Shown here piece by piece: positions 2,136-45,859 of a stretch of DNA of 64,000 nt. A model generated the notes under the pieces. The model did no database searches and was not told the origin of the DNA. It saw only the letters and a list, made by a program, of their open reading frames with translations. This DNA comes from Phoronis australis. Taxonomy: Eukaryota > Animalia > Phoronida. The first letter of the stretch is position 1. Each line of letters opens with the position of its first letter. The stretch is taken from positions 436,318-500,317 of the forward strand of contig NMRA01000170.1 in NCBI GenBank assembly GCA_002633005.1. The letters are read 5' to 3'. The translations under genes and the position numbers were made by a program.

Positions 2136-2173
2136 GGCAATGACCATCACCAACAGAGGTGATGGTCATTGCC
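2136..2173. other. Perfect 16-bp-stem hairpin (second copy 3995-4032)
   Basis: GGCAATGACCATCACC-aacaga-GGTGATGGTCATTGCC. Confidence 0.85.
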
Positions 2174-2182
2174 CAAGATTAA

Positions 2183-6283: not shown

Positions 6284-6471
6284 ATGAAGAATCTCCATGG
6301 ACGTTTGTTTTTGTGCTGTGTGTGTTCCGTTTTGTTAGTAAACAATGTAAAGACAGAACTATTTACAGCGTTGATGGAACTAGAGAAAGTATTACGGGCT
6401 GAAGCTTTGATAGCTGACGACATTGAGAATTATATTGCTCTTGAACAGGACAGGCTAAATAAATTAAAAAG
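6284..6471 (+). CDS. P4HA: P4HA copy 1 coding exon 1 (signal peptide, ELFTALMELEK...)
   Basis: ATG 6284; donor AG|GTAAGT, phase 2. Confidence 0.92.
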
Positions 6472-15400: not shown

Positions 15401-18400
15401 AGTAAATTCCTACCTCCTTATCAAAAGATTTACGCGGGACTGGGCTCAAGTAGAAAGTCTCATTCGCGATGGTCCAGTTGTTGGTAATGTATAGTATTCT
15501 TTTACTATCATATCAATACTTTTAGTATCGTACTCTTTCACTTTCGCATTACAAGAGGTTTCAGGAACTTAAATATCCAAAACATCCGAGATTTGAGTCC
15601 CACTTGTTCATATTCTTTATTGACACAAAACTGCACTACGTCATCATGATGTGCTGAAATTGACGATGCTCACACCTACTCTTAGCCAGTCACCTAGCTG
15701 TAGACTAACTTCAAAATATACCTAAGGAACGATGCCTGTCAATTTTAAGTTTGTTTCAGATTTCATTCTGCCTCCCACATTGTTCCAATGTGTGTGTGTG
15801 TGTGCGTGCGTGCGTGTTAGTCGTACAGTTTGGCTTCAAGACTAACCTGTTCCGAGTCATATCTTGGTACGCCGTAGGCGAATACGTAGTTGTCTCTTCA
15901 GTTCAGTAATTGAGATGTAGCCCAAGGTTGTGTTCCATAGGCCCACTGAATATGTTTGCAGCACTTGTGATAAAAGTTCTTGATTTATACCACAGCAATA
16001 GTGAGTTCTGTCTCATAATTTATGAATTCTTTCATTTCCCATAATTCAACATTCCAGCTTGACCAGCCAATCATTTCATCGGCCACCATTTGGTTAGGAT
16101 AGGCCAGGAAGCATGCTACTGAAACACACTTGATATTGAGGTCTTGAGACAGCTTGTTTTTTTCAATACATACTTGGTCTAAAAATGCTAACCAGGTCTC
16201 TCCCGTATGAACCCTTCGGTACCCTTTAACTCTGTTACTACTTAGTCCAAAAATGCACCTTATCTTTCCTAATTAACCCAAAAACACTCATCTCATTTGT
16301 ATTCATTATTCAGTACTATGCACAGCTTAGTATCATAATTATTTATTATGAACATTGTGTATTCACCAAATTTTGTTACATCTTTGTATGCGTACAGATT
16401 GATCTGAAATCTGCATGTAGAATTTCATAAATTGCAGAAATACAGTGGCTCACAATGTTTAATGAGCTCATTCATGATAATTTTTGAACAAATGAAAATG
16501 TTTGAATATTGAACTGTATCGGCCATCTCCAGATCTGTTGACCACCATCGACCAGAGGCGTAAGAACTTCCCCACTGAAGATGACTTAAAGGGTGCTGCC
16601 GCTGCCCTACTACGGCTCCAAGATACGTACCAATTACCAGCAGAGAAGATTGCCAATGGTGACCTACAGGGGGTCCAGATACACACGAAGCTATCTGGTA
16701 TGTGTACTTGTGGTCTCTTGAAAATGACATGTATGTAATAAGCAACGCTTTCGCCGAAGCATTCTTTAGTTGATTGCACTTGTTTTATTCTACCATGCTC
16801 AATGTTTGATTGTTAATTAAAGTTTTAGCACTAATGGAAATGTTATTGTCTGTTTTAAATAGATTTTGCTGCTGGCCAGTATTTACAATTTACGTCATCT
16901 TAGTATTGCCCGAAATCCAGAGTGCCATGCTACGTAGCAACTCTGTAATATGTGCCACAACAGCGCCATCTTTTGAAACGGTTAACTGTATCTCAAGAGA
17001 CATGTTGCCTGAGGCCCACTGCCATAAACCTGTAGCCAAAAGTGGGCCTTCCATCAAAAAATGTAAGACCACTTACTGCTTTGAAATTTGCCTCATTTCT
17101 TTCCTTGCTAAAAGTGCAACTGTACTGTTTTCTGGGCTTTTGATAACACTTGCTGTATAAGTTGGCTTATCATGGCATGTGCCGAGCATGGTCTCAACCA
17201 AACTTAATAATTTCAGATTTGTTTTTACGGCTTGTAAAATAATGACTTGTTAAGGACTAGGTTTTATTTTACTTGAACTTTCCGTATTTTTTTCCTGCAT
17301 TTAATGATCATATATATTTAATGTCGCAATGCATGTGGAGTGCATGCAGTCATTAACAATAGATTAAATGTCTAACACTTGTGCATGACCAAGTGTACTT
17401 TTGGTTTTGCACTGTTCAGTAGATACAGAGTGTGAGAGTAGTTGGGTCGCCCTTAATGTTGAGAACGACTGACGAACTACAAAGTATGTCTTTGGATTAA
17501 TAAAGATTACAGCGTTTTTATTAAGGAACATGACTATTGTAATGTCGCTTGATTAAATGTAACCACCTGTTCAGTACACTGTTGTCAGCTTAAATTATAA
17601 ACAGGGCGAGTGCGATGGGAGGGGCTCATTTCTGTGAGCACGCGTGTTATGTGAACCCTGGGTAACTGCATACCCTGGAAGATTTGTAGTCTAAGGGTTT
17701 GGTGAGCTTTCAAATTAGAATCAACATTACTGGATATATCTACAAGAGATAACTCCTGCAGGTCTACTGAGGTTCACCCTGATGCGGAATTTTTCGAGAT
17801 TGTTTTGAATGTATGGCTCATGTATGGAAAACGTGTTCAAGATGTAATTATTTTCACAATTTTTGTTGCTTAAAATGAGTCTTGAAATATGTGAAGTTGG
17901 TTTCTTGCCAACAGAGGCATTGTTCAAGGTCTCTTACAGCAACTTTGTTATCATCAGAGTGAATCTTCACTTATGCAACATGTTTTAAAGTTCACGGCTA
18001 AATGAGCCGCTGCAGTCAGAAATACATGTTTCCAAAATAACCCCCCTCTTTTTATGTGGAAACAACTTTCTAAAAGTGGTTTGTGTTTTCCCAGCAATAG
18101 TCATGAGTGATGCGCAATATATTTCACGTGTCTAACCGATCTGTGAACCAGTGATTTATACCCCAAAATTAAGCTGACTGTTGAAACACCATTACTCTTG
18201 TCGTGATTTCTTTTCAAACTCTGCTTTAAGGCTTTTATACCAAAATGGCGGAATGGCATACTTGGTTCTAGTGTGTACCTCACTCATTTTGGGACCTGCC
18301 CCTAACTGTTTAAATAATAAATAAGCATCTGCTTACATCACTTTTTTCAAAGTTACACATGGCTTGACAACTTAACGATAACCCAACCTCCGTGGTCAAC

Positions 18401-21400
18401 TGCTCCCCACCCGTTGACGTTGGTAAGCACTGCCAATCGCTTGTCACTGGACCACTGAAAATGGAAATAAAATCACGCACCACTTCAGTTGTTGTTGGGT
18501 GACCTTCCTTGAGAAAATGTATGAGTAAAAAAGACCGTATCACCTCATCAATTCCCCAAGAAACACAAACCAAAACCAGTTGTTATTTGGCCAAGGCATT
18601 AACTCACATCTTGTAGGCTTTAATCTGTTAACAGCTATGTCTGTTGCATGCTTTAGCTGTGGAGTGTTACGAGATAGGCAGGTCAGCATACATTACCGGC
18701 GACTACTATCATACAATACTGTGGATGGAAGAATCGCTCGACCGCATCCGGGATGAGGTGAATCGTACTGTTGACGAGGCAGACATTCTTGATCATCTGT
18801 CCTACTCAAATTTCCAGGTGAGACATTGGTGATTGTCAAGGTATGGTAGAAGTAAGACACGGATTCAATACGATGACTATATGCGACCACGTGGATGGTG
18901 TCATGTTGTGAACTGTTGTGTTTATGCACTCGGGTTCATAGGGGCATGGAGTAAATGTCAAAAACAACAGATACTCTACTTTTTTCAGTGAAATGCTATC
19001 TTGTTATTATTTTTGGTGCAAGTTGTTAGGTACTGAAAAGGTTTCCGACAGTTGTCTGGTGACAAATTTTTAATACTGCTTAAGACACACAGATTCCATG
19101 GCTGTTGCTTCGTGATTTCGTATCCTGGCTAATTTTTCAAGATATCTATGACTTTTTGGTTGTACCCAATAGGATTTTTTGTCAGGTGTAGTCAAAACGA
19201 TGCCAGGCCGTGAAGCTGTGACGTTGTAGTAAAACATCCCCATAAATTTTTTTGTTGTTTACTCATGTTAATCCTGCTGCTTTTGTGGTTGGAATGAATT
19301 TTCCTGCTCGTTGGACTGGCAAGGTAGGTCAGTGTGTTTAGATAAGTCTAGTCTCTCTGTCAAATCTTACTCTATTGTTGATAACGGTCAAACTCTGTCA
19401 GTGATTGGCTAAGGTAAGTTGCATGAGCATGGATCCTGGATGCGCAGCACTTCATAACGCCTGGACGCTTGAGAACAGACCCTGATGTTCTTGGAAAACT
19501 AGGTTTGCCTATGTCGGACTACTTTTATAGCGGAGGAGTGTTACGAGCTTGGACGGTTCGCCTATACGAATAAAGACTACTATCATACCATATTGTGGAT
19601 GGAAGAGGCGCTGGATAAATTCGAGAAGGAGGTCAACAAAACAGCAAATAAAGGCAACATTGTTGATCATCTGGCCTATGCGCATTCAGTGGTAAGCACA
19701 ATAAAGGTCCTTAGGCATTCACGGATGATAGGGTCAAAAGATGCAGTACGATGGCTGGCATTTTTCAGCAGGTGACGGAACAGATCTCTAGGATGCTTAA
19801 GTCTCGGTATTTGCTGCACGATATAAGCTGAGTGTGGTTTTTCAGTTTGGATTATTTTTACTTCTTTTTCACCTCCTTATCTTTCCCTAAGTGAGCTCCT
19901 CAAAACACAACACAATTATTCTACCTGTGGTTGTTGTCTATGTGCTCTGTTTATCTTTAAAATATTGTTCAAGACTGAAACTATTTCGGTAGTAATAGTA
20001 ACTTAGTTAACTAGCGGTAGTCATGGTTCACCTCAGTGCGTAGTGTTGATGTTAGGTCACCAGATCCGTTCACACCCTCCACGCACTCGTGTATAACAAA
20101 AAATACACATTGGTTTGCTTACTATATTGCATTTATGCTGAATTTGTGCTTGTGTAATTTTCATCATCAGGGCGCTTTGTTTTGAATTAAGGACTAATGT
20201 ACTAGGTATATAATTGTTATGCACCCACATATTTATATGTGGTCGCATTATGCCATCATCTTTGTCCCTCCATCCGGGCGGCGTCTGTCCAGCGTCCGTC
20301 GTCCGCTGCTCTATCTCCAAAACCGGTTGACGTATGTTTATGAAATTTTGCACGTGTTCCTTTCATGGATGGGACAGCATGAGCAAAGTTTCAGACGGAT
20401 CCAACTACCAGTGTGCCCCCTTGTGGCAATTTTAGTTTTTTACGTTTACCTCTGTATCTTCAAGGTCCTCAACATATTTTCACAAAATTTGGTATATAGG
20501 CATTTGTTGGTGAATGTGACTTCAGCTACCTACAACTATTGGACTGTTCTGACTACTGTTGCACCCCCTAGAGGCAATTTTAGTTTTTAAGTTAATTTGC
20601 ATCTGTAACTTTACAGTTCTTTGACAGTTTTTATTGAAATGTGACAAACAAGTTTATGTTATGATGGTGATCTATTCATTTTGGAATGGATTTGACGTAT
20701 TCTGTGCCACTTAGTATCCATTTTTGATACTAAGAAACACCCTTGAAGCAAACTGTTTGTATTGCTGTCGTGCGCGCATTTCAGCACTCTGCATTGCTCT
20801 TGTGTTTTGTTTTTCTTGCGTCCACGGCTGTATCTCGTTAACTCCTTGAAAGGTCTTGTGTGAAATGTGGTAGATATGTCCTTATAGAGATGATAATGGA
20901 TGAGAACGAGTTTCAGACCACAGGTGTACCCCTAGTGGCAGTTTTAGTTTTTTACGTTTGCCTCTGTATGTTCTTTGATGTATGTTTCTGAAATTTGGCA
21001 AATAGGTCTCTAGTAAGGCGACAAATATGCCTTTCTATTTTTGGACAGGTCCAACGTCACCTAGTGGTCATTTTTATAGTCTTTAGTTTGTTTTTGAGCG
21101 TCTGCCAAACTGCTCAAAAGATCATTATGAATCGTAGCAGTTGTGTTCTTGGTGAGAAGACCATGGCTGACATTGATTTTTGGACGGATCTGACACCCGT
21201 GGCGTGCTCTTGGGGTGATTTTTCATTTTTTGAGACCATGGCTATAGCTCCTTGATTCCTTTACATGATGTTTGTGAGCTTTTGTATGTGTTTTCCTGTA
21301 GATGTGACAGTGGATCTCCATGACGTTTTGGAGGGCTCTAGCTGACTACCACTATGCCCCCCCCCCCGGTAGCAATTTCATTTTACCTTTACCTCTATGT

Positions 21401-24400
21401 CTCTTCTGAGTTCCTTGATGTTTTTAATGAAATTTGGAGACAGGTGTCTATTATAACAATGGCAGCATCTTTACAATTTGTTGAATTTGACATATTCTGC
21501 GCCACCTAATGGCCATGTTAATTATTTCTGAGTCTGCTTTTTGCCGCTTGCTTCTGTATCTGCCAAACCGCTCAGAGGACCATTATGAAAATTTGCAGAT
21601 ATGTTACTGCTGACATGGGAATGACTTGCATAGATTTTTAGATGGGTCCAACGTAACTTTGGTGCTACCTAGTGACATTATTTTGGCATCTGCGTCCCTT
21701 GCAAGATCGCAATTTGTCAGGTCTATTCGTATTGACATCAGATGGATGGATTTGACTCCTGCTATTCCCTATAATGGCAATTTGTTTTTTTACGTCTGCC
21801 TCAGTCTGTATATCTGGAGTTCCTTGGTAGATTTTCATGAAATTTGACAAACAGTTTTGTAATAGAAAGATGACAAGCTTTTTCCCCGTGTATTCTCCAC
21901 GAAAGTTGCAGGTCAGCTAACCAAAACCCACAGGACACCTGACCGTGAAAGTCAACAATACGGGTGTTATGTGTCGCTAGTCAACAAATGTGACATCCCT
22001 CTACTGCTAAAGTGAACCTTGACTGGTATTTCAAGTCAACAAAAGTCAAAATTTAGGTGGAAGCAAGTCTAATTCCTAATAGTCACTTGCACTCATAACA
22101 CTTCTAAAGCCCACAGCTCCTCTACTTTTTTCCAAAGAGCTCCCTTGGGGCTTTTTGTAAATGCAAAACACTTCGGAGAAAATTAGAATTTCCAAATTTT
22201 GGGAAATCCCTGGCAATAGTTGCCAGTTCCCTCCAATCTGTTGCTTTAAATAAACATACTGTCATTTGAAATGCGGGTACTGAAAGTAATTGCCTTCTTT
22301 AATATTCAGCTGTTCATATATTAATTAAGATGTTGGTATTATAAAATAAATTTTCGAATGTTGTAATAAAGCTTTCATAGAAGATGGTGGTAATAAAGAA
22401 GTCATGATATGAAATTGCTTAGTAAATTAATTTTTCTGATTTAAATGGAACGCAATTGCTTTGGATGCTATGTTTATTGATATGAATGGTCCAGTGAAAA
22501 GTCTGCATTCACTTGTATTGAGCAAACACAATGTCCTACAAGTTACTGAACACAGTCTGTGTTGGGTAATTTGTATTTGTTCCATGAATTAGTGAATGCA
22601 GAACTAAGATGCTGGTATTTAGCTGAGCAGCAGGAGTTCATCGGGGATTTCAAAAGTAGAGTTTCCAAAATGGGTTTCCCAATTTTCAGGGCATCTATCA
22701 CCAATGACCAGTGACTATTAAGCTTTTATGATGTCGAGTCAAACTGCTGTTATAGTGTAGTATCTTACTGTGGTGACATGGTTGGGCACTGAAAGTTTTT
22801 GTGTCTTACATTACTTCTATTCTCGACTGGCCAATGAGTCCTCAGAGCTGGTGCTAGCGTGTTCAGAGACACTCGTGCTTTTGCTGACTTTACTTGGGTG
22901 TCCAAATGCTGAACAGGATGTCCTAGCTTAGATGTCTGAATTTGAACCAAGGTGTGTATTTGGGTCCCCTAGACACTCTGTAGCTGAAGGCTTCATTGCT
23001 GAGCAGTTGGTGTGTTTTATTTTTTGTTCATTGAGTAGCAAGTACATACCAATGGAACTATTAAACGGACAATTTCCGTCCGAGAAAACAAATAATTTTT
23101 ATTTTGTTCCCTTTAATGATCAGTATTTCGTAAAGAGTATTTTTTCTTTACAGCAAGGAAATGTTAGAAAGGCTCTGGTTTTGACCGATGAGCTCCTAAC
23201 TCTTGGTAAGTGGCACTGTTCATGTTATGACAACATCGAATAGTTTATTTAAGGTTATGTGGGACCTAATCGACAAAACTACATGTGCCCAAAGAACTAT
23301 AGACTTTTACTCAGTAAGAGTATACGTTCTATGCTAGTAGAAATTCCATAGAATTTGATTTCTGGCTTCATAACTTTTTGCCATTGAGTCATTTGATCTT
23401 ACTTTTTAGTGAAATTTAGTAAAAAAATTAATGGTTCATTCTTAGCATAACAACAGGATCGATAACATTTACCAAATTTTGTGTGAATTGCTATTAATGT
23501 TCAAGATAAAATTATGAAAGCACTGCTACTAGAAGTTTTCTAAGTGATTGTTTCATTTTCATTTTATGCAACTTTAAAGTTTTTTTTCTGTTTTCATAAA
23601 AGTCATACAAGTCCTTTTTTGATAGCCCTTCATGCAAAAGTGGAACATTTAAAGACAATTGCTAACAGCTTTTTAGAGAACTGTGCATAAAGCATAGTAC
23701 TTGAATGTTTGTTCTTGATCCAATAAACAATTTTGAGATATAATGTTCCAATATTTGGTAAAAAATTGGAATTTTTCTAGGGTCCTACATAACGTTAATA
23801 ACCTGTATGTTGTCCAATTGCTCACGCTAATTAATAAATGTATTATGTTCTCACTCAATGTAAGGCACTTTTATCTTGGATTTGATTATCAGTGACAGTT
23901 TTGTGTTTGTATAATTTGTTATATTGCAATGATGGTGACTATGAATGTTTGTGTTGTAATAATTGCTGCTAAGAAAGCATCTTTTGTGTGGGCCCCATAA
24001 TGCAATATTGACTGAATTGTATATAGGGCTTCAGGGAGTATACACTAGACATTTACACATAAGCCGTTATCACTGATCTGAATGGACTTTTCCAAGTGTG
24101 GGTCATGAAACAAGGCAATTAGGTCTGATCAGTTTGTGGAACTGCCGACAGACAATCAAATCAGCTGATATAAATTACTGCTATCTCCCACAAAACTTGG
24201 CCAATTTTTGTGGGGAAAAAGCTCTTTTCCCAAACTTTTTGAGGAATTCAAATGGGGGCTTTGTTTCCATCCACAAATAAGGCGAAAAAAGAATTCAAAC
24301 ATTTTAATTGTTTGTTCTACTCATATCTTAATGTTGTCGTATGAAAGTACAATATAGTGTAATCTAAGGGAAGGACTTGTGGTTTTCTGACCATCCAGAG

Positions 24401-27400
24401 TTGCTTGCCTGCCAACTCCAGACCGACCATCAGTGCAATGTAATGCTATGCAATTTCTAAATTTGCGTGTGGATGATAGGTAGAGTTGTAATTTTTCTGT
24501 CATTCGTGGATAGCTAGCGACGTTGGAATTCTTGTGTGAATCACTTGGATTTCCCACTGCACAACAGTGGCAATTTAACGACCGGACATGGCAGTTGAAC
24601 AAAAAATCATAAAAATGGTGGGAATTTTACAGAGTTAGGAGCGCAGAATGCTGTCCACCGACTATTCTGCCACCATCGAGTGACAAGACATTTATCATAA
24701 CATTGCTGCTGGATCATGAAGTGTCTATTGAGGACAGTTTGGCTGTGGATTTTGTTTGCTTTGTACCCAGTTTTGACGCAACTGACTTGGCCTTGTATAT
24801 GCACTTCTTAATTTTTAGTATTTTCTGTGTGTCTTTTGATTACTAAAAGCAGGAAGAGATAACCAGGAAGGGACAACTAGCTAAACCGCCGTTTTTGGCC
24901 TCCTTCCCCGGACTAATTTCAGGACTTAAGTTTCGTTTAAAAGGAAACAGATGATTTTATCAGAGAGATTTAAGCTTTTTCTATAGAAGGATATCAAAAA
25001 ACTCGCTTTTCAACCTTAAACAGTGGTGTAATTGTACTTTGAAAATATCGACTTCAGCGCACGCAATCGCAATTTCCCACACGCAGTCACGGGTATTTAA
25101 GCTTTTCCGTCGATGTATAGATGGCGCAGTAGTCAAGTACTACCTCATTTGCATATCAAATTTGGATGTGGGAGTTCTGTAACCTGGTTCCCGGGCCTCA
25201 CAAGATGACGTCACGGATAACTCGTGGGTCTGTGTAGGAGACTAGGAGTTCTGAGACTCCCGTCAGTTTAGTTGTTGTCGACCGCTTGAGTGCATAAAGC
25301 GGTGACCTCCCGCTGAGAGCACGCGCTGATGAAGATACCACAGCTAACTCGATCGCTTCGCAATCAGGAGGTGAAAACACTCTCATGACCGCAGTTCTGA
25401 ATTCCAGCTAAGCAAGCCCTATTTCGAGGAGCGGATTTGAATTGTTTTCGTCCCCAGACTGTGGATTGCAGAGAAGATTAGAATGAGGTCAACATTGAAC
25501 TTTCTGCGGCTACCTATCGTGTTGANATTTGACAAACAGTTTTGTTATAGAAAGACGACGAGCTTTTTCCACGTGTATTCTCCACGAAAGTTGCAGGTCA
25601 AGTAACCGAAACCCACTCGACACCTGACCGTGAAAGTCAACAATACAGGTGTTATGTGTCGCTAGTCAACAAATGTGACATGCCTCTACTGCTAAAGTGA
25701 ATCTTGACTGGTATTTCAAGTCAACAAAAGTCAACATTTAGGTGGAAGCAAGTCTAATTCCTAATAGTCACTTGCACTCATAACACTTCTAAAGCCCACA
25801 GCTCCGCTACTTTTTTCCCAAAGAGCTCCCTTGGGGCTTTTTGTGAATGCAAAACACTTCGGGGAAAATTAGAATTTCCAAATTTTGGGAAATCCCCGGC
25901 AATAGTTGCCAGTTCCCTCCAATTTGTTGCTTTAAGTAAACATACTGTCATTTGAAATGCGGGTACTGAAGGTAATTGACCTTTTTTAATATTCAGCAGT
26001 TCATATATTAATTAAGATGTTGGTATTATAAAATAAATTGTCGACTGTTGTAATAAACCTTTCACAGAAGATGGTGGTAATAAAGAAATCGTGATATGAA
26101 ATTGCTTAGTAAATTAATTTTTCTGATTTAAATGGAATGCAATTGCTTTTGATACTACGTGTATTGATATGAATGGTCCAGTGAAAAGTCTGCGAACACA
26201 ATGTCCTACAGGTTACTGAACAGTCTGTGTTGGGTAATTTGTGAATTAGTGAATGCAGAACTAAGATGCTGCTATTTAGCTGAGCAGCAGGAGTTCATCG
26301 AGGATTTCAAAAGTAGAGTTTCCAAAATGGGTTTCCCAATTTTTCAGGGCATCTATCACCAATGACCAGTGACTAGTAAGCTTTTATGACTTCGAGTCAA
26401 ACTGCTGTTACAGTGTAGTATCTAACTGTGGCGACATGGTTGGGCACTGAAAGTTTTTGGGTCTTACATTACTTCTATTCTCGACTGGCCAATGAGTCCT
26501 CAGAGCTGGTGCAAGCATGTTCAGAGACACTCGTGCTTTTGCTGACTTTACTTGGGTGTCCAAATGCTGAACAGGATGTCCTAGCTTAGATGTCTAAATT
26601 TGAACCAGGGTGTGTATGTGGCTTCCCTATACACTCTGTAGCTGAAGGCCTCATTGCTGAGCGGTTTGCGTGTTTTATTTTTTGTTCGTTGAGTAGCAAG
26701 TACATACCAATGGAACTATTAAACGGAGAATTTCCGTCCAAGAAAACCAATAATCTTTATTTTGTTCCCTTTAATTATGAGTATTCTGTATAGAGTGTTT
26801 TTTCTTTACAGCAAGGAAATGTTAGAAAGGCTCTCGTTTTGACTGATGAGCTCCTAGCTATTGGTAAGTGGCTCTATTCATGTTATGACAACATTGAATA
26901 GTTTATTTAAGGTTTTGTGAGACCTGATCGACAAAACTATATGTGCCCAAAGAACTATAGAATTTACTCAGTAAGAGTATACGTTCTATGCTAGTAGAAA
27001 TTCCGTAGAATTTAATTTTTTGCTTCATACCTTTTTGCCATTGGGTCATTTGATCTTACTTTTTAGTGAAATTTAGTAAAAAATGAATGGTTCATTCTTA
27101 GCATAACAACAGGATCGATAACATAACCAAATTTTGTGTGAATTTCCATTAATGTTCAAGATAAAATTACGAAAGCACTGCTACTAGAAGTTTTCTAAGT
27201 GATTGTTTCATTTTCATTTTATGCAACTTTCAAGTTTTTTTCTGTTTTTGATAGCCCTTCATGCAGAAGTGGAACATTTTAATGGCAATTGCTAACAGCT
27301 TTTTAGAGAACGGTGCATAAAGCATAGTACTTGAATTTTGAGTTATAATGTTCCAATATTTGGAAAAAAATTGGAATTTTTCTAGGGTCCTACATAACGT

Positions 27401-30400
27401 TAATAACCTGTATGTTGTCTAATTGCACACGCTAATTAATAAATGTATTATGTTCTCACTCAATGTAAGGCACTTTTATCTTGGATTTGATTATCAGTGA
27501 CAGTTTTGTGTTTGTATTATTTATTATATTGCAATGATGGTGACTATGAATGTTCGTGTTGTAATAATTAATGCTAAGAAAGCATCTTTTGCTTGGGCCC
27601 CATAATGCAATATTGACTGTGAATTGTATATAAGGCTTCAGGGAGTATACACTAGACACTTACACACAAGCTGTTGTCACTGATCTGAATGGACTCTTCC
27701 AAGTGTGGGTCATAAAACAAGGCAATTAGGTCTGATCAGTTTGTGGAACTGCCGACAGACAATCAAATCAGCTGTTATGAATTACTGCTATCTCCCACAA
27801 AACTTGGCCAATTTTTGTGGGGAAAAAGCTCTTTTCCCAAACTTTTTGAGGAATTCAAATGGGGGCTTTGTTTCCATCCACAAATAAGGCGAAAAAAAGA
27901 ATTCAAACATTTTAATTGTTTGTTCTACTCATATCTTAATGTTTTCGTATGAAAATACAATATAGTGTAACCTAAGGGAAGGATTTGTGGTTTTCTGACC
28001 ATCCAGAGTTGCTTGCCTGCCAACTCCAGACCGACCTTCAGTGTAATGTAACGCTATGCAATTTCTAAATTTGGGTGTGGATGATAGGTAGAGTTGTAAT
28101 CTTTCTGTCATTCGTGGACAGCTAGCGACGTTGGAATTCTTGTGTGAATCACTTGGATTTTCCACTGCACAACAGTGGCAATTTAACGACCGGACATGGC
28201 AGTTGAAAAAAATCATAAAAATGGTGGGAATTTTACAGAGTTAGGAGCGCAGAATGCTGTCTACCGACTATTCTGCCACCATCGAGTGACAAGACATTTA
28301 TCATAACATTGCTGCTGTATCATGAAGTGTCTATTGAGGACAGTTTGGCTGTGGATTTTGTTTGCTTTGTACCCAGTTTTGACGCAACTGACTTTGCCTT
28401 GTATATGCACTTCTTAATTTTTAGTATTTTCTGTGTGACTTTTAATTACTAAAAGTTATTGTCTCCGTCTCCATGAAAATTGAATGTGGAGAAGGAATAC
28501 ACCACGGAACCTTGTTGATCTCGAATTGTGATATTACATGAAATATTTACCGGGACATCATTGCGTATAATTTATTTATTTTGAGCTTGGTAAATTCTCA
28601 CCAAATTAGGACACAAGATGGCAGTTAAGTGGAGCATTTCTTTATTTTATTCATTACAAGATGTGCCAAATAAATGCTTCTAGTGCTAAGAGTTCATTGC
28701 CATATCTACATTAAAATGACGATGTCTTGAAAAATATTGTAGACGTTCACATCTGTTACAATGTTAGAAACCTTTGAAAAGTGAATGACTGTATGCTTCT
28801 AGTTCTTGAATATCGAGGTCATATTTATTATTTTTTCTACGATAGTATAAAATACTCTTGGTGTGGTGAATGCATTTACTACATAAGTGACTGGAAGAAA
28901 AACTGAGTGTGCAATGATCGTTATAATCTGCTATGACTGATGTCACAATTTCGGTACGAAAGCCATAATTCTTTCAGTTCCCGACCATGAAAGGGCATTG
29001 GGAAACAAACGTTACTACGAAACAGTCATTGCACAGCAGGAGGCACAAGCGGAAAAGAAAGGAGATGACCTTCCAGTGGAGACAAACCAAAACAAACGGC
29101 AACTGGACGAGTACAGGAACTCGCAGGAGTTTTTCAACTATGAATCGTTGTGCCGAGGGGAAGATGTTATTGTGAGTCTTTGAAACTGCTGAGTGTTTTT
29201 TATATGTTTTTTGGTCTTCATCTGCCATAATTTTCATGTTTAGACTCCTGAGTACTGTAGTCCTCAATTTTACACAAAATAATGCTGAAATCGCTACCAT
29301 TTTGCTAAGACCAAAGTTTTACCAATTGAAAGCGAATGCTTCTCTTTATAACAGTGTGCAGTACAACTGATGCTCATAATCATGTAAAAAATCAGTGTTT
29401 CTTTTTGAATTTGTCAAATTAAAATTACAGTTCTTTGCCTAATTGTCTGCTAAGTTGTAGAGCATTTCCATTGGAAAGGAGTTAAACACTTTTGATATCT
29501 GTACTGAATTGTATCACTGTGACTGTCTCCATCAGCCCAACCCAGACGTTCACAAGCTGAAGTGTTTCTACACACACAAGAACAATCCCCGACGCTACCT
29601 GAAGCCGTTCAAGGAGGAGGAAGCTTACCTCAACCCACGAATTGTTGTTTTCCATGATGTCATCACTGATGCTGAGATAGACCTGGTGAAGAAAATGGCG
29701 GGACCCCGGGTAAGCAGACGTCACGTGACATAGCTGTTGTAGACGTGCTGTCAGTTGTTAGCAGTTGATAGACGTAAACGTTGTTTTCATATTCCTGGTT
29801 TTAAGGCTTCTGCAGAATTCATCTGTTGCTGACTCTATAAACTGTATATTAACTGTCTGTATTTTGTATCCTAAAAGCTCAGACTTGCTGTATTTTATCC
29901 ATTGCTAAAGAGTAACTATTAGACCTCACAAAAGCAATTCTAACTAGACAGCACTGAGTCATAACTTGTAATGTTAGACTGTTTACACATACACGCATGT
30001 CAGGCTTATGATCGAAAATAAAACAAGACTTGTTTGCCTTTGAAGCTTCACTTTAAACCAATGACGTGTTGACCTGTAGTTGGGTGTGCAGTCTAACTTT
30101 TGACAGTTGTGGTTTTCACAACTATTAGTTTGACAATGTTTCATTTTCCTAAATATAAGTTCAATTATTTACATCCCTTATGACGTATTTGCAAAAACAA
30201 ATGTTTTATCTTCAGGACATCCATTGTTTGATAAAAGTAGTGTAATCTCATTGATTAACATTGACGGACTTGTTTTTTCTTTGTTTTGAAGGTCATAATC
30301 TATAAAAAATTGTCATTTCCTGGCTTTTAAAGTTCACCAACAATCATATACGTATAACATGTAATATGACATTTGAAACAAAAAGTTGTAGATTGTAATA

Positions 30401-33400
30401 GTTTGATATTTCCCTCTGGATACAGTGATGTAGTAATGTTTAGTGGTTATTATTCTCAAAGATAAGTTGTAACCTACTTTGTCTTGACACTTCTTGCACC
30501 AAGCTTTAAAACATTTTTTCAGCTTAAACTATGCACAGACGATGAGTCACTAGTCTAGGTATCTGCGTCAAGTGAAAGGTGGTTACCTGCAAACAGCCAG
30601 AAAAAATACTCAGTGAAACACGCCAATTTGGCTAGTTCTTTCAGTTGTTTTCTAATTTTCGCTCCTTGGATACATTTTGCCATGTGCCTCCTGTTTACTA
30701 CATAACCTCCTCTGAATGGTGTCGTGATAATTTCGCATGAGTGAATGGTCATATTTCATCGGTCAGTGAAGCTTATCAACCAAGCTCTGTGCAGCTCATC
30801 TCACCCGCCCACTGTGAGGATTTGGACGCACTTGTTAAGAAATCAAGCACATAGTCTACTTTCCTCACCGCCTTGTGAGGAAAGATGCTCCCAGTTCACT
30901 TAGGGGCAGGCATGAGTTATTACCTGGTACACACATTTGAGGTGGATGACTCTCTGTCTGAGCCTAGCTTTACAGACTCTCTGTCATTTTTCATCTATTA
31001 TTCATTATAAGTATTCTTCCAGCTGAACCGTGCCACGATTCAAAATCCAACTACAGGAAAACTGGAGTTTGCGCCGTATCGAATCAGTAAGAGGTAAGAA
31101 CAAAGTATGAGTTAAGGAACCCTTGCGTGTAGACTTATAGGTGCTTGAGGTCCCTAAGTGAAATATTGGAAGTATGTATACTCATTTGATTTCATAACTT
31201 GGACGGTTTTTCTTACCTCAACCTCTTACCTCAACATAAAATTTTTGACACACTGTGTGATGCTGCCTGACTAAAAATAGATAGCAGGCAGTCATTAGAC
31301 ATACACAGGCCTCATAGGTCGGGCCTATTGTACAAAACACCTGATTTGGATCTCACGAGAACCCTCATGTGTATATTGTGACAAGGTTGTTCTTCCTGAG
31401 AGCAGTTGCAAAATCTGTAGACGGGTAGGTCACATTCATCTGCTATTGGTGGTTGGAATTTGAACCGAGTTACTGTTTACAGATAGAATCCACAACCAAT
31501 ATCGTTTCTGCTTGTCTGGTCATCTGACTTGACTACCTGAATGTTTCCATGTATGCAGTTGTTACATTATTTCTCAGGCACCACAGTGAGAAACTTGCTG
31601 TAAATAATCCCATTGTGGATTCAAACAGATTTTTACTATGAACAATTTTGCACTGGGATACAAATTGTGGTGGGATTGTCAGTCCCAGCATCTATACCAG
31701 GATTATTCTGGAAACATTTATTCATTAGTTTGCTGGGTTTGATTGTTTAATCCACTGTCGGAGCATGCGTGATATTACTCTGCCTTTTGTGTTTATTGTC
31801 TTTCTGATATTATCATGTCTTGGCCACTTAATTATCTGTTCTGACACTGGGTACATTTGTTCTGATAACAGGGTGCAACATAACTTGCTGGGATTTTTTA
31901 ATAGCACGGGACACAACCGATTAAGGAAAATAGTTCCGGTAAGAGATTCATGCAAAATGACTAGGATTTTGAAATATTGGGAACACAGCTTTTGTGAATT
32001 TTGAACTAGCCTTTGTCTTTGGTTCTCCAGTTTATGTAAGAGTGGGTTATTTTTCCCTGACTTGGGTTCTTGCATTTTGTGTTGTCAGTGCCTGGTTGAA
32101 GACTTATGAGGCACCGTTCCTTGAAACTCTAGAACAGCGTGTTGCCGACTTCACACAACTCAACATGGAGGTGGCTGAAGAACTCCAGGTATGGCGATGA
32201 CTGGTTTCAACTTAATTTGCCCCCGTATTTTCATCAATAAATAAGGTGGACAATTATAGATATTAAGCAAATTTTAAACACTTTTTCATAATCATCATAT
32301 AAAACATGGTTCATTACATTAAAATCTCAATTATTTGGCAAAAAAGCCAAAATAGCTTTGTCATTTTTCAAAATTTTTAACCTTGTTATGAATGCCTGCA
32401 ATTTTTCAAAATATTGTCTTATGATAGTTTAATGGAAACAGAAAAGTAAAGCAATTTAGTTTTTTGCTAACTTATCAATTAATGAAAAAATGAGACCATT
32501 AAGCTCATATATCTTTCCATGTTGCATCCAAAATTGGGGAGATTTTACCCCATTCCCAAAATATGAAATTAATGTATTTTCTTTAATTGTATTGCAATTG
32601 AGTGAAAAATTCATTCAATACATTTTCTTCCCTGATACAGACAAAAATTCTTAATTGTGTACAGTGTGTCTTTAAAAGCCATGTTATTGATACCTTTAAC
32701 TTTGTGATTCAAGCTGCTTGTACCATGTACACTTTTAGGTTGTCAATTATGGGATTGGTGGCCATTATGAACCGCACTATGACTTTGCAAGGGTAAGTGA
32801 CTTGTGTGTTTAGTTTTGGGGGGCATGTCCGTGCTCCATATGTTAACCATTGCGTGAATATGAACCTGGGGTAGACTCGCTCCAGTTTGTGTCACAGAAA
32901 CTTGAAAATGTCATCCTTTTTACTTCTAAAATGTCATGGCGTCATTGTATTTGTTTGAAAAATTCATGGTTCACCTGAATCAAATTTTTGAAACGTAGTC
33001 AAAGTGAACTATATATGAGCTGGAATACCCCTTGTAAATGATTCATGTTTTGGTTGACATGAGCCAGGCCACTGCCCTTTAAGTGCATAGAACCTCTATA
33101 AACATGTCTCAGTGTTTTGTAGGTAGCCAATTATGGAATTGGCGGCCATTATGAGCCTCATTTTGATCACGCACGGGTAAGTCGGAGAATGCTTGATGAT
33201 TTTGGTGGTCATGAAGTGTCCATGTGCTGCCTGCAACTTTTCGGTTCCATTCTGGTTTCAAAGCTCACATAATCCTTGAGGCCTTGTCTGTGACCACACA
33301 CAGTGGAAGTTACGGGGTAATGGTTCGCACAGAACTTGAAAGTTTGGGTATTTATAAGGCTTGAAAAGTTGTGTATTTTTTACACAAAACGTTGTCTAGT

Positions 33401-36400
33401 TTTCAAAAATCTGAAATATAACGATATTAATTTTGGGAATGATTTTTGTTTCTTTCCTATCGGTCTCATGATTGTCACAAAAATCACGTGGGAAATTAAA
33501 CTCTTCTCAGTCATTATGATTCCACCTAGTTATCACGGTCAAACAGGCCTACTCATACCAGCCCTACCAGTCACTGCCCTCAGGGTTGACATACTTGTCT
33601 TGTAGGGTGTTGAAAAATCCTTGAATTATGTCCAAGAAGTTCCGAAAAAGATCGTGCATTTCGTCACCAGAATACTGTGTGAACCACGAGTATTGCTAAG
33701 CTGCTTTCGCACTGACCTCATTTCTCTTTGCATGATGAAGTCATGTAAACCTGTTGCGTCAATTTCTGCTTCTGATCACCTGGCTGAGCATTTTTAAATT
33801 AGCTTGCAGCTACAATGAAGTCAAGTTTCAAGTTGCTAACTTGAAAACTTAATTTAAAGAAGCATGTGAGCCACTTGGTCAGAATGTTGACCTAAAGACC
33901 TTTTTAACAACTTTACTGTTATCTGCTGTGAATCTTAAAATGTTGGTTTGTCAATCTTAAAATGTCTATATTTTACTATATTATACTTTGCAAGATAATT
34001 GGAGATTTGAAATTTAATGTGCTCGGTTTTTATGTGCCCACATATTTATATGTGGATAAATATTGTTGTCATCTCCGTTCTGGCGTCCGCGGCTATATCT
34101 CCTAAGCCCCATGCAGGACCTTGTTGAAATTTGACTGCTGTGTTCTTATGTGGCTGATAACAGATTACGACAAGTTTCACCCACTAGTGGCAATTTTATC
34201 TTTTTGCGATTGCCGTGACGGTTTTTCATAAAATTCGGCTAATAGGTTTTCAATACAGAGGCGATGATATCATTCCATTTTTGGACTCGTTCAACGAATT
34301 TTACGCCACCTTGTGGACATTTTTGTTATTTTTGCATCCATTTTCTGGCGTCCGCCTCTGTATCTGCCGTACTGCTCAAAGGATCATTATAAAAATTTAC
34401 AGATGTGTTGCTGATAAGAAGGCTACGACTGACATTGTCTTTCAGATGGGTCCATCTACTGTGTTGCCTCCTGGTGGCGATTTTGTTTTTTTTTTGCATC
34501 TACGGCCGAATCTCCTTAACCCTTTGAAGTAGCTTAATGAAATTTGAAAGGCATATTCCTATGAACCCTTCGACAAATGGTAATGTGTGTCGAACTGATC
34601 CAGATACCACTGTGCCCCCTAGTGGCAAAATTTTACATTATCTGTGCCACCTAGTGGCCATTTTTGCATCCATTTTCTGACATCTGCCTCTCTGTCTGCA
34701 ATACCACTTAAAGGACCATTATGAAAAAGTACAGAGATGTGTTCCTGATGAGAAGGCCACAACTGATATTGACTTTCAGATGGGTTCTACTACAGTGTGT
34801 CTGTCACCCCCTAGTGAGTGACATTTTGTTTTGCGTCTGCAGTGGAGTCTCCTTTAGTCTTTGAAGGAACTTTGTGTAATTTGAAAGATGTGTTCCTGTG
34901 GAGCCATCGACAAATGGCTTCCCATTTTCAGACAGACTTGGTGTTTTCTGTGCCAACTTGTGGCCATTTAAAAATGTTTGCCTAGATGTTTTTGACGTCT
35001 GCCACTCAATCTGCCAAACCACTCAAAGGATCATTTCGAAACTTTATGGTTTTGTTCCTGATGCGAAGACTCGGACTGACGTTGATTTTTGGATGTATTC
35101 GATTATGCTCGCTCCCCCTAGGGGCAATATTGCTTTTTTGCATTACGCGGTTGTATCTCCTTAACCCTTTGAAGGATCTTTGCTGCGAAATTTGGCAGAT
35201 AGGTCCTGTAGAGATGACAACAGATGACAATGAGCTTCAGACCAATCTGACTATAGTTGTGCCCCGTAGTGTCAATTGTTTTTTCTATGTCTTAAGAGTT
35301 CTTTCGATTATTTTCATGAAATTTGGCAAAGTTGTACATTACAAAGACAGTGCCACTTTCTCACTTCAGATGGCTTTGACATATTCTGTGCCATCTAAGG
35401 ACTAGTGTTATGATACTAAAAGCACCCGTAGAAGCACATCGTTAGCGGAGCTGTCGTGGGTACATGTCAAGGCTCTGCGTTGCTCTTGTAAGGTTGTCAG
35501 TGAGCCTGACCTCCTTCGCTCCTTCCGTAAAGTGTGCATTTTGTACACTTGTCATGTGAAAATGGTGATAATTGTCCTTACGTAGTCTAAAGATGTTACA
35601 GGAAAGAAATATTAATTCCTCCGGTAGCTCTGCAGTTGCGTTGCAGCAGTGCAAGATCGTGTCAACACCATGCGCTGCTCTTGTTTATTAAACTCAATTC
35701 ACGTCCAGTTCCTGTACATTCACCATTACCCATCTTCAAAGTTCTCGGCCACTAAATAGTTTCCACAGTTTCCTGACACATCCTGCCAGTAAGTGTCTTT
35801 GCTGAATTTTGTTGCAGAGAACGTATGAAAACATGACACCCATTGAACGTAGAGATGGTAATCGCATAGCCACAGTGTTGTTCTACGTAAGTGTGTCTGC
35901 TGTGATCAGACTAAGGATGCTACTGCAGCAGTAAATGCAAGAATTATCACTTGGTGGGTCAGCTGACTCTGGCTCGAATGTGACGTTCAAGTTGGATGGG
36001 GGGCTCCAGTAATGGGGATGGGGAGGGATGTGCCGCCAACTTGGGAAGGTAGTTTGCCCATTCAGATATTGCCTTTGGCTGGTAATTTGAGTCTCATTGA
36101 GGGTGGGCTATTTGGCTTTGGTATTGTTTTGTGTGGGTTATCTGGATAATATGGATTTGTGGTAAGGTATGAATGGGATAATTATTTACTTGATAATATC
36201 TGAGGTCACCGTTGTCTTTATTATTCAGATATTATGTCGAGTTGGATTTTTTAAAAATTAAAATGTGTGGCTGCACCTCCTTTCCATATACCCATTATTT
36301 GGACGAGAGCGCTTTAGTGAATTCTTTGCATTTACGATCGCACAGCATGGATGTGATGGAATTAGCCATTGGCCAGATTCTGAATGATTTTTGACTCTAT

Positions 36401-39400
36401 ATATCTGAAATTCCTTCAGAATCTGGTGTGCTACATGCAATGTCTAATTCTCGACTATTTGTTTCTTATGGCCTCATCAGAAAGAAGAAGTAAACGCATT
36501 CAAAAGTCTTGGTACAGGCAATAGGATTGCAACCGTCCTATTCTATGTAAGTTTATAAGTCTTGGTACATGCAATCAGATAGCAGCAGTCCAGTGGTAAA
36601 ATGTCACCAATTTTGTACACAATATGATGGACATGTGGAATTTTATTTTCTCATTTTTGTATAATTAACCTACAAGCAGTGCTTAAACAATGCTTTGCCA
36701 TTTTAATCTTCTGCATCGTGACTACTACGAGACAGTATTTTGAAAATTGTGGACATACACAATATTGCTCAAAGCTTTCGAACAATTAAGTGGGTCAATT
36801 CTGGCATTTTTTGTCCAAAATTGGTGAAGTTTACCTCTGTTCTCTGCATATTTAGAAATATTGGTTCAAGCGATTGGGTTGCAGAGCAGATGCGTAGTCA
36901 TCCACAAAGGACACTCAAATGCATGCTTTTAACCTTAATCTATGAATATAAATATTGATTGAGGAAGTTACTGTTTATTTTAAAATTTGACAAAGCTTAG
37001 TTAACGTCTTGTATTTGTTTAATGACATATGAGCTTATTCATCAACTGTGAACTACATGCCTGAATAAACTATAAATACAACTCCAAACATGTTGAAAAT
37101 GAAATACAAGAGCCTGGGAGTACTTTCATATTGAACTTGTGTTCGTATTGGATCTTAAATTTTATCTCACGAGCATATTTCGCTTCGTGCTTTGAAATTT
37201 GAAGCAAAGTCTAGAAACCATGGACATTTTGCCCAGACTTTAGCTTGTGCTAAATTCGAACCCTGTGTGTTTAGGAAGTTTCAGTGAATCGATAAACTTC
37301 AAAGAAAAAGACTCCACTTTGGTTTGTTTGTGTTCAAAGAAAGCTATTGTATGTTCAGATTCATCCAGTCTCTACCGATGGTAGAGACTGTGTAACTCCA
37401 GTTTGCTTGCCATTTCCCTCAAATCTTTCAACACTTTTGACCCATAACAGTGCCTTCCCATTGCCTGTAATGTAAGCTTGGACTTTTTACCTAGCGGTCT
37501 CACGCGTAGACGTAGTGGTCTCACTTAGTGAGATTTAAGATTGCGTATCACTAAGCCACACCCTGTAACAAAGATTTTAGAACTGAGTGGAATTTACCCG
37601 AGATGTCCTGACATCTGGTGTTTAGGCAGGGAACCAGCCAAGTTGTCTTGTGCCCAGAAATAGTGGTGTCGCGCATTCATGTGTTACTAACCCTCGCCCC
37701 TGCAATAAAAATGTTACAAAATCCAGGTCACGTGTATTAAGCATGTAGATGTCAGGACATCTAGTGCTGGAGCTGGGAGCTTGCTAGACAGTTCATGTCC
37801 TGGAAAAATCTGTGAGATAGAGCACTCCCGTAGGATGACATATTGCTGACCAGGACCAGGATGATGAAAGTCGTTGACAGGAAAGTACATGTCGGAAAGT
37901 ATTCAAAGAAAATTACCCAGAATTCCCTGGCATCACAGCTTGAAGCAGAATTCATCATCACCGTAGTTTTTCCTCATGACCAAGAATGATGAAATAAACG
38001 GGAACGTTGTCACGGTGGCTAAGCCATTCTGTATTAGAATTTTGCCACTACAGCAATAATTACCTATTTTTTTGCTGTTCACATAATTAACCCACATTAC
38101 GGATAAATAGTATTTTGTCTGATTTCTTTGTGCTGTTAGTGAATATATTTTAAAGTTTCTGCTCACTCATAGATATTAGATTCAACAATGAGTACCTGGC
38201 AAAAGAAGGCATTGATGTCTGTTTAGCACAGTTTTAAGATTTAAAATTTGTATAGAATCATGTGACCAACAAACCTCCACTTGGTTTGCCTATTTGGGTT
38301 TTTACGTGTAGGACTGGTGTAATTCAAGTGCCTGTTTCCACATTTTGTTGTGTTCATTTGAATGCCTCTTGGTTTAAAGGTTTCACGACACGTATCACAT
38401 GCATTTTGTTGCGTTACAGATGAGCGACGTGGAAGCTGGAGGGGCCACCGTATTCACTAATATTGGCGTGAAGGTTTTCCCCAAGAAGGTAAGAATAACA
38501 ATTAGACGATAAGCAACGATGTACTGTAGCTGCCAGTTGAATAAAGAATGCACAGTCATGTCCTGCAGTACATTGATGAGATTTATTTTTGGCTTCTGTT
38601 CGATACTCTTCTTTTTTCCATGGTGCAAAATTCTGCGTAGTATGGTCCATTCAGTTCAGAAAAATGATGGAAGTTTTGGCCACGTGACTTTTTCAAATGA
38701 AAGCATTGATCCCTTCAGTTAGCTGATAACAATCTTGCTATGTTTCAAGGGCATCATAGACATGACTCCAAACATGTAGGAAAATAATTATTTTTTTCAG
38801 TCTGTATTGTTTTTATACAAAAATGAGTATTTCCAAACTTCTCTGTGATGTTCTTACTTGGTATTAGTCTCTGATCTTACCAAGGCCTCCATGAGAAGTT
38901 GATGAAAACTATGATGGGTTTAAATCGGCTTGACATGTTTCGGAGTTGAGGCTCTACAATATCAACTGGCGTAATCCTAGTCTCAATAGACAACTGGCAC
39001 ACCATAGGTTGTTATTGTTAGTCTAGTCTGTTGTTACTCCCCTGTAACTGACTGTCTATGTATCATTGCTGTTTGTTGGGCCTAGCAAGGTGGCCACTGT
39101 TTTTCCTTCTGAGGATGGTGTTTTAATAAATGCCGAAATATGTCCAGCGGGCTTAAATCTATCGTTTTTATCAACGCATGCTGCTACTTGGTGTGATGGA
39201 GATCTCCACCAGAAGTGGTGCACAATGTTCAGAAGGAGATTAAACTCCGGTCAGACGTTGTTGTGTAGGTTGAGTGTCGTGGCAATACAGCAATACCTTG
39301 GTGCACTCTAGGTTAAGTTTATGTAAGACCCTAGAAGAATATCCAGAACATCATATCTCAGAAATGGTTCATCAGATTTATACGAAACTTGCCAATATTA

Positions 39401-44250: not shown

Positions 44251-44438
44251 ATGAAGAATCTCCATAGACGTTTGTTTTTGTGCTGTGTGTGTTCCGTTTT
44301 GTTAGTAAACAATGCAAAGACAGAACTATTTACAGCGATGATGGAACTAGAGAAAGTTTTACGAGCTGAAGCTTTGATAGCTGATGATATTCGGAATTAT
44401 ATTGCTCTTGAACAAGACAGACTAAATAAATTAAAAAG
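44251..44438 (+). CDS. P4HA: P4HA copy 2 (tandem paralog) coding exon 1
   Basis: 188 nt, near-identical to 6284-6471, intact ATG and donor. Confidence 0.88.
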
Positions 44439-45859
44439 GTAAGTTTTTTCATAACAAACATGAAACTGCATATTTGTTCCAGTTACCTTTTGTTATTACG
44501 TGGTATGTTGGTATGTGGTTATTACCAAGTAAGTTGCCGCTTTATGTTTGTTTTTACTTGGCGAAAAAATTTTGCCGGTCAGTATGTTGTTGTGATACTA
44601 AGCTTTTTTTCATGTGGAGAATTTCTGGCTTACACTGGTCACCACTCTGATTCCCTCATACCCCAGGCAATATGATTCTTATTCAGCACGCGGTTTTTGA
44701 TGTAGAACGGACGTGGAAAGTTAATACACCCAAATTGTTTTTCTCTGGCATTTGCACTGAGTTAAAGCCTGCAATGTGCAGAGCAGTTTTAACTTGGTGC
44801 TCTTCAAATATTACAAAAAGACTAAAAATTATTTTGCGTTGATCGTGATGAAGGATCACTTACCAAAGGAATGTTGGTATTATGTTTCATACCTGTTTTC
44901 ATTGCTTTATTTTTAATATTCCCGTCTGCTTTTTTACCGGTTAGGGTTGCTATCTTTTTATTTTGTTTTTAAACAAAGTATCAAAACAACATAGAAATCA
45001 GTTAATTGTGAACCCATCCTTGAATTTTCCAGATTACAGCTACACAAAACATGTCACAGCAAACAAAACTACGATTGCCTTTAGTTCAAATTCAATTTTG
45101 ATTAGAACTCAAATCATAAAATATATACAAAAGTGCAAATATGGTGATAGCCAAACTGAAGATTTGGGACCTCTGGACAATGTTGGTTGCTGTATACTAC
45201 ATAACTATTTTAGCTTTCCTCAGTCATAAAAAATGAAACCACAGCTCTTGCCCACCCACCAACCTCATCCACTGTTGCACTCTCTAGACGTTGACTACAT
45301 CTTGGTTGTCTTCACAGGTGTTCCATTACAACTACAAGCTATCGAAATTGGCGCATTTCCGCGAATAGCAGTTTTCCGGTTAGTGTACTTACTCCTGGAG
45401 TAAAGTAGTTCGGCATGCACTGGGTCATTAAGCGATGTTTTAAAATTTATTGACATCTAATTTATTCACTGTGTGTAATGTTGATAGATGTTTCAGTGTA
45501 GCTTAGTTGTGTGACATTGTTAACTCTGATCAGCGGTTGTAAATCACCGAGTTTATCAGTACGCAGAGTCGTTCATCTTCAACTGTACCCAATGTTTGTA
45601 GTTTTTAGCTTTTAATAATAGTTCATCGATTTTTAAAAATCGAAAAACAGAATTGGTGTTTTTTCCATCTGAATACTGCTGCGGTATTTGTTTTTAACGA
45701 AAACTGTTGATTAATGCCTTTTGAAAATTCGCCAATAGATACAGGCAGAGATGGTTACTACAGTTTATTGTCGGGTAATTACATTTAATTGGATCTTGCT
45801 CGTACCAGACAGTCATCGTAACTGAGTCCGCCTCTGGCGCCGCGATCTCTTTAATCCCG

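Follow-up and report, generated by a model that had tools for sequence, protein, structure and literature searches.

Does a single gene for collagen prolyl 4-hydroxylase switch parts of its substrate-binding and catalytic surface by choosing between duplicated exons? The question is raised by a stretch of 64,000 nucleotides from the phoronid Phoronis australis (assembly GCA_002633005.1, contig NMRA01000170.1, positions 436,318 to 500,317 of the forward strand), referred to below as the window; positions are counted from its first nucleotide. An initial annotation had described here one gene with three mutually exclusive exon cassettes and up to eight isoenzymes. We consider it probable that a single gene for the alpha-subunit (P4HA) carries three old exon pairs, in which 10a and 10b are alternatives and 11a and 4b likely serve as minor substitutes for 11b and 4a; exchange of the pair members likely adjusts substrate binding and sequence preference while leaving the chemistry unchanged.

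A P4HA gene with three pairs of homologous exons

By its sequence, the gene is a collagen prolyl 4-hydroxylase alpha-subunit. The model comprises 14 exons from 6284 to 40876 on the plus strand and yields 538 or 537 amino acids. The spliced protein is 50–54% identical to named P4HA proteins over 520–545 amino acids and has the full-length architecture of N-terminal domain, peptide-substrate-binding (PSB) domain, linker and catalytic domain. Both copies of exon 4 match PF23558 (E = 2.8e-20 for 4a and 9.8e-19 for 4b), and 4a also matches solved PSB domains in PDB. The HxD...H triad and the 2-oxoglutarate lysine are present, as HYD or HFD in exon 10 and as RHAACP and GSKW in exon 13; drawing on established knowledge of residue roles, we take exon 13 to supply the third iron ligand, a histidine, and the 2-oxoglutarate lysine. 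A 27-row tree places the protein among sequences of molluscs, brachiopods and bryozoans (support 94/92, not starred), and the best-scoring match of exon 6 is Biomphalaria. The six cassette exons of the initial annotation, with their coordinates, AG/GT sites and matching phases, were borne out, and all eight of their combinations keep an open frame. The exons are as follows.

6284..6471, plus strand: exon 1, first coding exon, with signal peptide and start of the N-terminal domain (continuous open reading frame model)
15332..15483, plus strand: coding exon 2 (gene model)
16533..16697, plus strand: coding exon 3 (gene model; 3>4a junction reads)
18657..18817, plus strand: exon 4a, first half of the PSB domain, Phe199 in human PSB-I numbering, major form (PF23558, PDB, junctions)
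19531..19691, plus strand: exon 4b, alternative copy with Ser199, probably a minor form (PF23558, dN/dS, sense-strand depth)
23154..23205, plus strand: exon 5, first copy, within an N-joined duplicate; likely the other haplotype, not a cassette
26812..26863, plus strand: exon 5, second copy, the one used by reads (4a>5 and 5>6 junctions)
28978..29171, plus strand: exon 6, second half of the PSB groove (equivalents of Arg223, Asn227 and Tyr230) and linker, constitutive (model, RNA)
29536..29709, plus strand: exon 7, start of the catalytic domain (model, RNA)
31023..31093, plus strand: exon 8, 71 nt, hairpin loop; single here, paired in human P4HA1 (pair scan)
32089..32188, plus strand: exon 9 (model, RNA)
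32739..32792, plus strand: exon 10a, catalytic loop and HxD (H-Y-D-F), major form (9>10a junctions)
33123..33176, plus strand: exon 10b, alternative HxD exon (H-F-D-H) (9>10b and 10b>11b junctions; run X4 contig)
35818..35886, plus strand: exon 11a, divergent betaII-betaIII substrate loop, probably a minor form (X4 contig depth arithmetic)
36481..36546, plus strand: exon 11b, canonical betaII-betaIII loop, major form (10a>11b and 11b>12 junctions)
38420..38488, plus strand: exon 12 (model, RNA)
40061..40157, plus strand: exon 13 (model, RNA)
40806..40876, plus strand: last coding exon, to the stop codon (model, RNA)

The members of a pair measure 161 nt each (4a/4b), 54 nt each (10a/10b) and 69 and 66 nt (11a and 11b). 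All six are preceded by AG and followed by GT in matching phases, so each of the three pairs qualifies as tandem homologous exons. Synonymous divergence (dS) between 4a and 4b is 2.07, with a nonsynonymous divergence (dN) of 0.31; the proportion of synonymous differences (pS) between 10a and 10b is 0.77, which is saturated, with a dN of 0.10; and in the last 10 codons of 11a/11b synonymous sites are saturated, with a dN of 0.05. Exon 4b keeps an open frame and intact splice sites at a dN/dS of about 0.15 (at saturated dS). By contrast, the exon-5 copies of an N-joined duplicate in the same gene differ by a dS of just 0.17. Judged by this divergence, the three pairs are old tandem exon pairs under purifying selection, and the initial annotation was right to set them apart from the N-joined duplicates. 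That they might instead be assembly artefacts, with two haplotypes placed in tandem, is suggested by the three N-joined duplicates of 1.9–3 kb in the window. However, pair members share no flanking intron, their synonymous sites are saturated, and each of three RNA runs shows splicing of 10a as well as of 10b (see below). Junction reads and divergence thus refute an artefact, the chance of which we regard as practically nil.

To look for further pairs, every AG..GT/GC segment of near-equal length within 6472–41000 was scored as a partner. Exon 4 reached a partner score of 176, exon 10 of 91, exon 11 of 34 and the exon-5 duplicate of 73; the best score of any remaining exon was 15. We therefore reject any further pair, be it at exon 8 or at another exon, and exon 8 is single.

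A transcript with both copies of exon 4, or with none, is shifted in frame, whereas the frame is kept with both or neither member of pair 10 or 11. Exclusivity of 4a and 4b is therefore likely to be enforced after splicing; pairs 10 and 11, being frame-neutral, would need control of splicing itself. Steric exclusion as such a control is not supported by the introns between pair members, which are 713 (pair 4), 330 (pair 10) and 594 nt (pair 11) long, and in which branch-point-like words close to the 5' end are limited to +51 in pair 10 and +77 in pair 11. A scan for inverted repeats, made with no shuffle control, gave 43 and 48 pairs, and the 25 longest of each, which were viewed, held no convincing docking/selector set. 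Copies of a repeat in inverted orientation to each other, at 32350–32550 and 36595–37000, flank the entire 10a–11b block, with no evidence of an effect on splicing.

Transcripts use both members of pair 10

RNA evidence came from three raw-read runs (X1, X2 and X3), 18–19% of each of which was read, and from a contig set (X4), all under the same species label. The raw-read junctions given here are the best 15 of 36, the weakest of them with 25 reads; a second listing holds 15 of 63. All junctions among the matches listed are GT..AG on the sense strand. The 9>10a junction is covered by 48, 32 and 11 reads in X1, X2 and X3 (91 in total) and the 9>10b junction by 16, 18 and 3 (37 in total). Thus, 10b takes 37 of the 128 reads that enter exon 10, and both members are spliced in all three runs. 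Exon 11b is joined to either of them: 10a>11b has 42, 26 and 12 reads, that is 80 exits against the 91 entries through 9>10a, and 10b>11b has 14, 9 and 3. The latter 26 reads reject a strict coupling of 10a with 11b and of 10b with 11a. The remaining counts, in the same order of runs, are 29, 50 and 3 for 3>4a (82 in total), 24, 30 and 1 for 4a>5 (55 in total), 44, 37 and 12 for 5>6, and, from the second listing, 42, 24 and 8 for 11b>12.

For the two other alternative exons the evidence is depth. Run X4 has one contig, with a depth of 52.9, that carries the 9>10b joint. Four bin depths in this run, of 2.37, 4.49, 8.73 and 17.4, agree with the 2.37, 4.49, 8.73 and 17.46 predicted by a path through exon 9, 10b, 11a and 30 nt of exon 12, and from this arithmetic we infer use of 11a on the path 9-10b-11a-12. 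The 4b bin has a sense-only depth of 1.41, 1.11 and 1.33 in X1, X2 and X3, compared to 9.44, 9.45 and 2.14 for the 4a bin and 0–0.25 for the two intron bins upstream of 4b. From depth alone we infer that 4b is used as well; if its bin depth is exonic, the share of 4b among exon-4 copies used is about 11–13% for X1 and X2 and 38% for X3. Since one form (4a, 10a, 11b) dominates in RNA, eight isoenzymes is to be read as a ceiling.

What the swaps change in the protein

The PSB pocket residues named in the consulted sections of PMC12433258 are Tyr158, Asp192, Tyr193, Tyr196, Tyr199, Arg223, Asn227, Tyr230 and Phe231. According to our own alignment to the human sequence, five of these nine lie in exon 4. 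Between 4a and 4b the pocket differs only at position 199, which is Phe in 4a and Ser in 4b; the other eight residues are common to both. The claim that the swap exchanges the substrate-binding groove was therefore too strong, as one of five exon-4 pocket residues changes. As for the proposed exchange of the catalytic strand, 10a and 10b differ at three of 18 residues and the Tyr, His and Asp are kept. In contrast, the differences between 11a and 11b span the whole loop encoded by this exon, which is the betaII-betaIII loop (for its role see the portion of PMC9676403 that we consulted). This is one of two loops proposed, in extracts from bioRxiv 2023.06.28.546674, to set the preference for the X position in X-Pro-Gly.

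Residue frequencies were taken from 316 homologues of 480–640 amino acids, from which the four snail models discussed below were left out. Position 199 is Tyr or Phe in 312 of the 316, and the residue after the HxD Asp is Phe in 310 of the 316 and His, as in 10b, in one. For these reasons 4b and 10b carry rare residues, as counted in a set that is redundant, drawn mostly from insects and vertebrates, and almost without lophotrochozoan orthologues. The motif HFDH also occurs in vertebrate P4HA3 and nematode PHY proteins.

The swaps are likely to tune substrate binding and sequence preference with the chemistry unchanged. We predict the largest effect for the 11a/11b swap, which would change the betaII-betaIII loop. 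Exon 4b, which removes the aromatic of the P5 pocket, is predicted to lower peptide affinity. For the 10a/10b swap, with its changes within the HxD motif and behind it, we expect a fine adjustment of the catalytic loop. It is also conceivable that all six exons are used, that the proteins are nearly equivalent, and that the pairs persist for tissue- or stage-specific splicing control, not for substrate preference. The few changes in exon 10 and in the PSB pocket would fit such equivalence, as does the statement, in the part of PMC11868403 consulted, that, up to that study, it had not been clarified what the human P4HA1 pair means for function. However, 11a and 11b differ over their entire loop. 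Moreover, 35 same-gene isoform sets, hand-picked from deuterostomes and two insects and in many cases related, show internal substitutions only in the substrate-contacting loops of exons 8, 10 and 11 (13, 8 and 11 sets), with three more cases in terminal exons. We therefore regard equivalence as unlikely and retain the reading in which the swaps adjust substrate binding.

The same exons are paired in gene models of other animals

Human P4HA2 has a pair, 12a/12b, ascribed to Nokelainen (2001), that resembles pair 11 of the window: it concerns the same exon and loop, the canonical copy has 66 nt and the divergent copy comes first, although the latter measures 60 nt compared to 69 nt in the window. 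The human exon sequences were taken from those supplements of PMC8373072 and PMC5740500 that were covered, and in the former the event is dated 'Vertebrata'. The arrangement is not restricted to vertebrates, since the window, echinoderms and Trichinella have the same one. In RefSeq, starfish, urchins, a sea cucumber and a crinoid have isoforms whose difference lies precisely in exon 11, and a Trichinella papuae model fuses two genes, each of which carries two exon-11 copies. The order, with the divergent copy ahead of the canonical one, is common to the window, human and all six co-included cases (Trichinella twice, three Strongylocentrotus purpuratus models and Acanthaster). The common position and order suggest that the P4HA2-type pair is of bilaterian origin, before its published vertebrate date. 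Models of two sea urchins have three versions of exon 11, one divergent and two canonical, rather than two; these are in models P0424, P0425 and P0297 of Lytechinus variegatus and P0492, P0486 and P0300 of Diadema antillarum.

The 71-nt pair 9a/9b of human P4HA1 (consulted parts of PMC11868403 and PMC8373072) is likewise a case of homologous mutually exclusive exons in the catalytic domain at a substrate loop. It concerns a different exon, however, the hairpin loop encoded by exon 8 here, which is single in the window gene. Catalogue rows from PMC8373072, PMC5740500 and PMC9741552 hold only exon-8 and exon-11 events for human P4HA genes among the matches listed; the supplement rows covered confirm both human pairs that the initial annotation had named.

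Two versions of exon 10 are found in P4HA1 models of sharks, frog, lizard, birds, alligator and tortoise, and in models of the hemichordates Ptychodera and Glandiceps. As in pair 10 of the window, the HxD-exon pairs of Cetorhinus, Engystomops, Gallus and Ptychodera are two versions of the same 18-residue exon. In some of them a second cassette is combined with it two by two: exon 8 in the shark and frog models (Cetorhinus and Engystomops), and exon 11 in Ptychodera, whose isoforms X1–X4 are the four combinations. The vertebrate duplication is likely independent because both copies carry the vertebrate GGQY signature; none of the vertebrate or hemichordate copies has His after the Asp. These pairs are known from automatic annotations, and our literature search found no paper on them or on a second, HxD-exon pair in P4HA1. 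In P4HA1 models of birds, tortoise and alligator two HxD exons occur together, separated in 10 of 11 by 21–22 in-frame residues (P0317, P0318, P0324, P0336, P0346, P0351, P0362, P0388, P0482, P0483 and P0485).

A tandem exon-4 segment is present in four of 308 proteins of at least 400 amino acids (301–302 with an exon-4 match), all from two species of snail, Biomphalaria glabrata and B. pfeifferi (KAI8794049.1, KAK7004431.1, KAI8766267.1 and KAK0045450.1). As in the window, the second of the two tandem copies has a small residue at position 199, here Ala; these models annotate both copies in one protein, with a read-through stretch between them. The window copies are 57% identical to each other and 42–51% identical to the snail copies, and they have in common His193, which is Tyr in the snails. 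Since they are closer to each other and share His193, we suggest that the two exon-4 duplications are separate; in the exon-4 tree the topology leaves orthology with the snail copies unsettled. A homologue search with exon 4b alone gave no match.

Thus, all three window positions are paired in gene models of other animals, which we count in favour of three genuine pairs in the window gene. The PSB-exon and HxD-exon pairs are accordingly not unique to this locus, and the idea of one gene standing in for the vertebrate gene duplications loses its point, since a two-by-two combination of cassettes is already present in P4HA1 models of shark and frog. The suggested comparison with orthologues did turn up pair 4 in snails and pairs 10 and 11 elsewhere; the three together were not found in our literature search.

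Points against use of all six exons

Several observations weigh against our reading. No junction of 4b and none of 11a, including 10a>11a, is among the matches listed (for 4b, the best 15 of 36). Parts of window repeats (19312–19410 and 19857 onward) lie in the 4b bin, and the next bin is repeat-rich. With short reads of 151 nt, exon 4 is not linked to exons 10–11. Exon 4b is absent from the partial second copy of the gene in the window, and the composition of the homologue set limits what the rare residues can say. Finally, S. purpuratus and Acanthaster RefSeq models include both exon-11 copies, so exclusivity may leak there.

Of the proposed mutually exclusive cassettes, 10a/10b is the one with both members seen spliced, while junctions of 4b and 11a are lacking among the matches listed; neither an a>b nor a skip-both junction is among them. 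The count of up to eight isoenzymes holds as far as open frames go, and the proposed junction check gave 10a-11b and 10b-11b directly, 10b-11a by depth, and no 10a-11a among the matches listed. One could conclude that only the catalytic-domain pairs are live, that 4b is rarely used or decaying, and that there are at most four forms. The lack of a 4b junction among those listed, the loss of the nearly invariant aromatic at 199 and the loss of 4b from the second copy all fit this. On the other hand, 4b has retained its frame and sites under a low dN/dS, has sense-only depth in all three runs and shares a small residue 199 with the second snail copy, and the second gene copy itself looks relaxed (dN about equal to dS in exon 3). 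Restriction to the catalytic-domain pairs is on balance quite unlikely, and we keep to the view that 4b is likely a minor alternative.

Duplicates, second gene copy and neighbours

The exon-5 copies lie within a 3-kb duplicate, 92.5% identical including the intron and joined by a single N at 25526. Junctions among the matches listed use the second copy, and both together would shift the frame; exon 5 is rejected as a cassette and, because of its dS and its place within this repeat, is likely a second haplotype. There are three such tandem duplicates of 1.9–3 kb, 92.5–98% identical and each joined by a single N (1395–5144, 21838–28455 and 57820–62027), which are likely uncollapsed haplotypes.

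The partial second P4HA copy (44251–56259) contains exons 1, 2, 3 and 4a at 92.5–94% nucleotide identity and a dS of 0.15. Exon 4b is missing between the homologous flanks 57964–58060 and 58854–59066, and no exon of this copy past 4a occurs within the 64-kb window. A recent duplicate, a pseudogene and a divergent haplotype are candidate explanations. Where 4b is missing there is an insertion with 91-nt inverted ends (58120–58840, and also 60230–60950), which holds a decayed reading frame. We presume that this frame is similar to the GIY-YIG endonuclease found in Penelope-like elements, for which Pfam returned no match.

On the minus strand, 5637–5813 contains an exon that resembles a neutral ceramidase at its beginning (PF04734 positions 1–20, E = 0.0012, below the cut-off). 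It lies head to head with P4HA, about 470 nt from its start codon, and the two likely share a promoter region. A short tandem array with a 17–20-nt unit is found at 39742–39935, in the intron preceding exon 13.

Discussion

Homologous mutually exclusive exons in P4HA have reportedly been known since 1989–2001, from work ascribed to Helaakoski (1989 and 1994) and Nokelainen (2001). The mechanism is thus of a known type, and the surprise is limited accordingly. In titles and the starts of abstracts, with subscription papers mostly uncovered, our literature search found no description of cassettes at exon 4, 10 or 11 of an invertebrate P4HA gene, and a term search found no match in the supplements of PMC7954323 or the main text of PMC9013439. 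Nor did the search find a report of three cassettes in one P4HA gene, of a PSB-exon pair whose second copy loses the nearly invariant pocket aromatic, or any sign of a P4HA2-type pair predating the published vertebrate date; the partly covered catalogue supplements could hold further P4HA events. Compared to the literature found, what is new is three cassettes in one gene and a PSB-exon pair that loses the pocket aromatic in two lineages.

The wider pattern, repeated duplication at substrate-contacting exons, is also new relative to that literature. Tentatively, P4HA might be an unrecognised hotspot, in which four substrate-touching exons (PSB groove, hairpin loop, HxD catalytic loop and betaII-betaIII loop) were repeatedly duplicated across bilaterians, yielding a specificity that splicing can switch. 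The P4HA2-type pair would then be ancestral to bilaterians, two lophotrochozoan-type lineages would independently have acquired a low-affinity PSB form that has lost the P5-pocket aromatic, and three switches would be stacked here.

Vertebrate isoenzymes differ in the X-Pro-Gly triplets that they hydroxylate, which the consulted part of bioRxiv 2023.06.28.546674 ascribes, from docking and kinetic work, to two loops that are flexible. The window gene offers natural loop swaps in one otherwise identical protein, so that PSB pocket residue 199, the HxD loop and the betaII-betaIII loop are separately testable. Moreover, the survey suggests that P4HA1 of vertebrates other than humans has an HxD-exon switch and that the P4HA2 pair arose before its published date.

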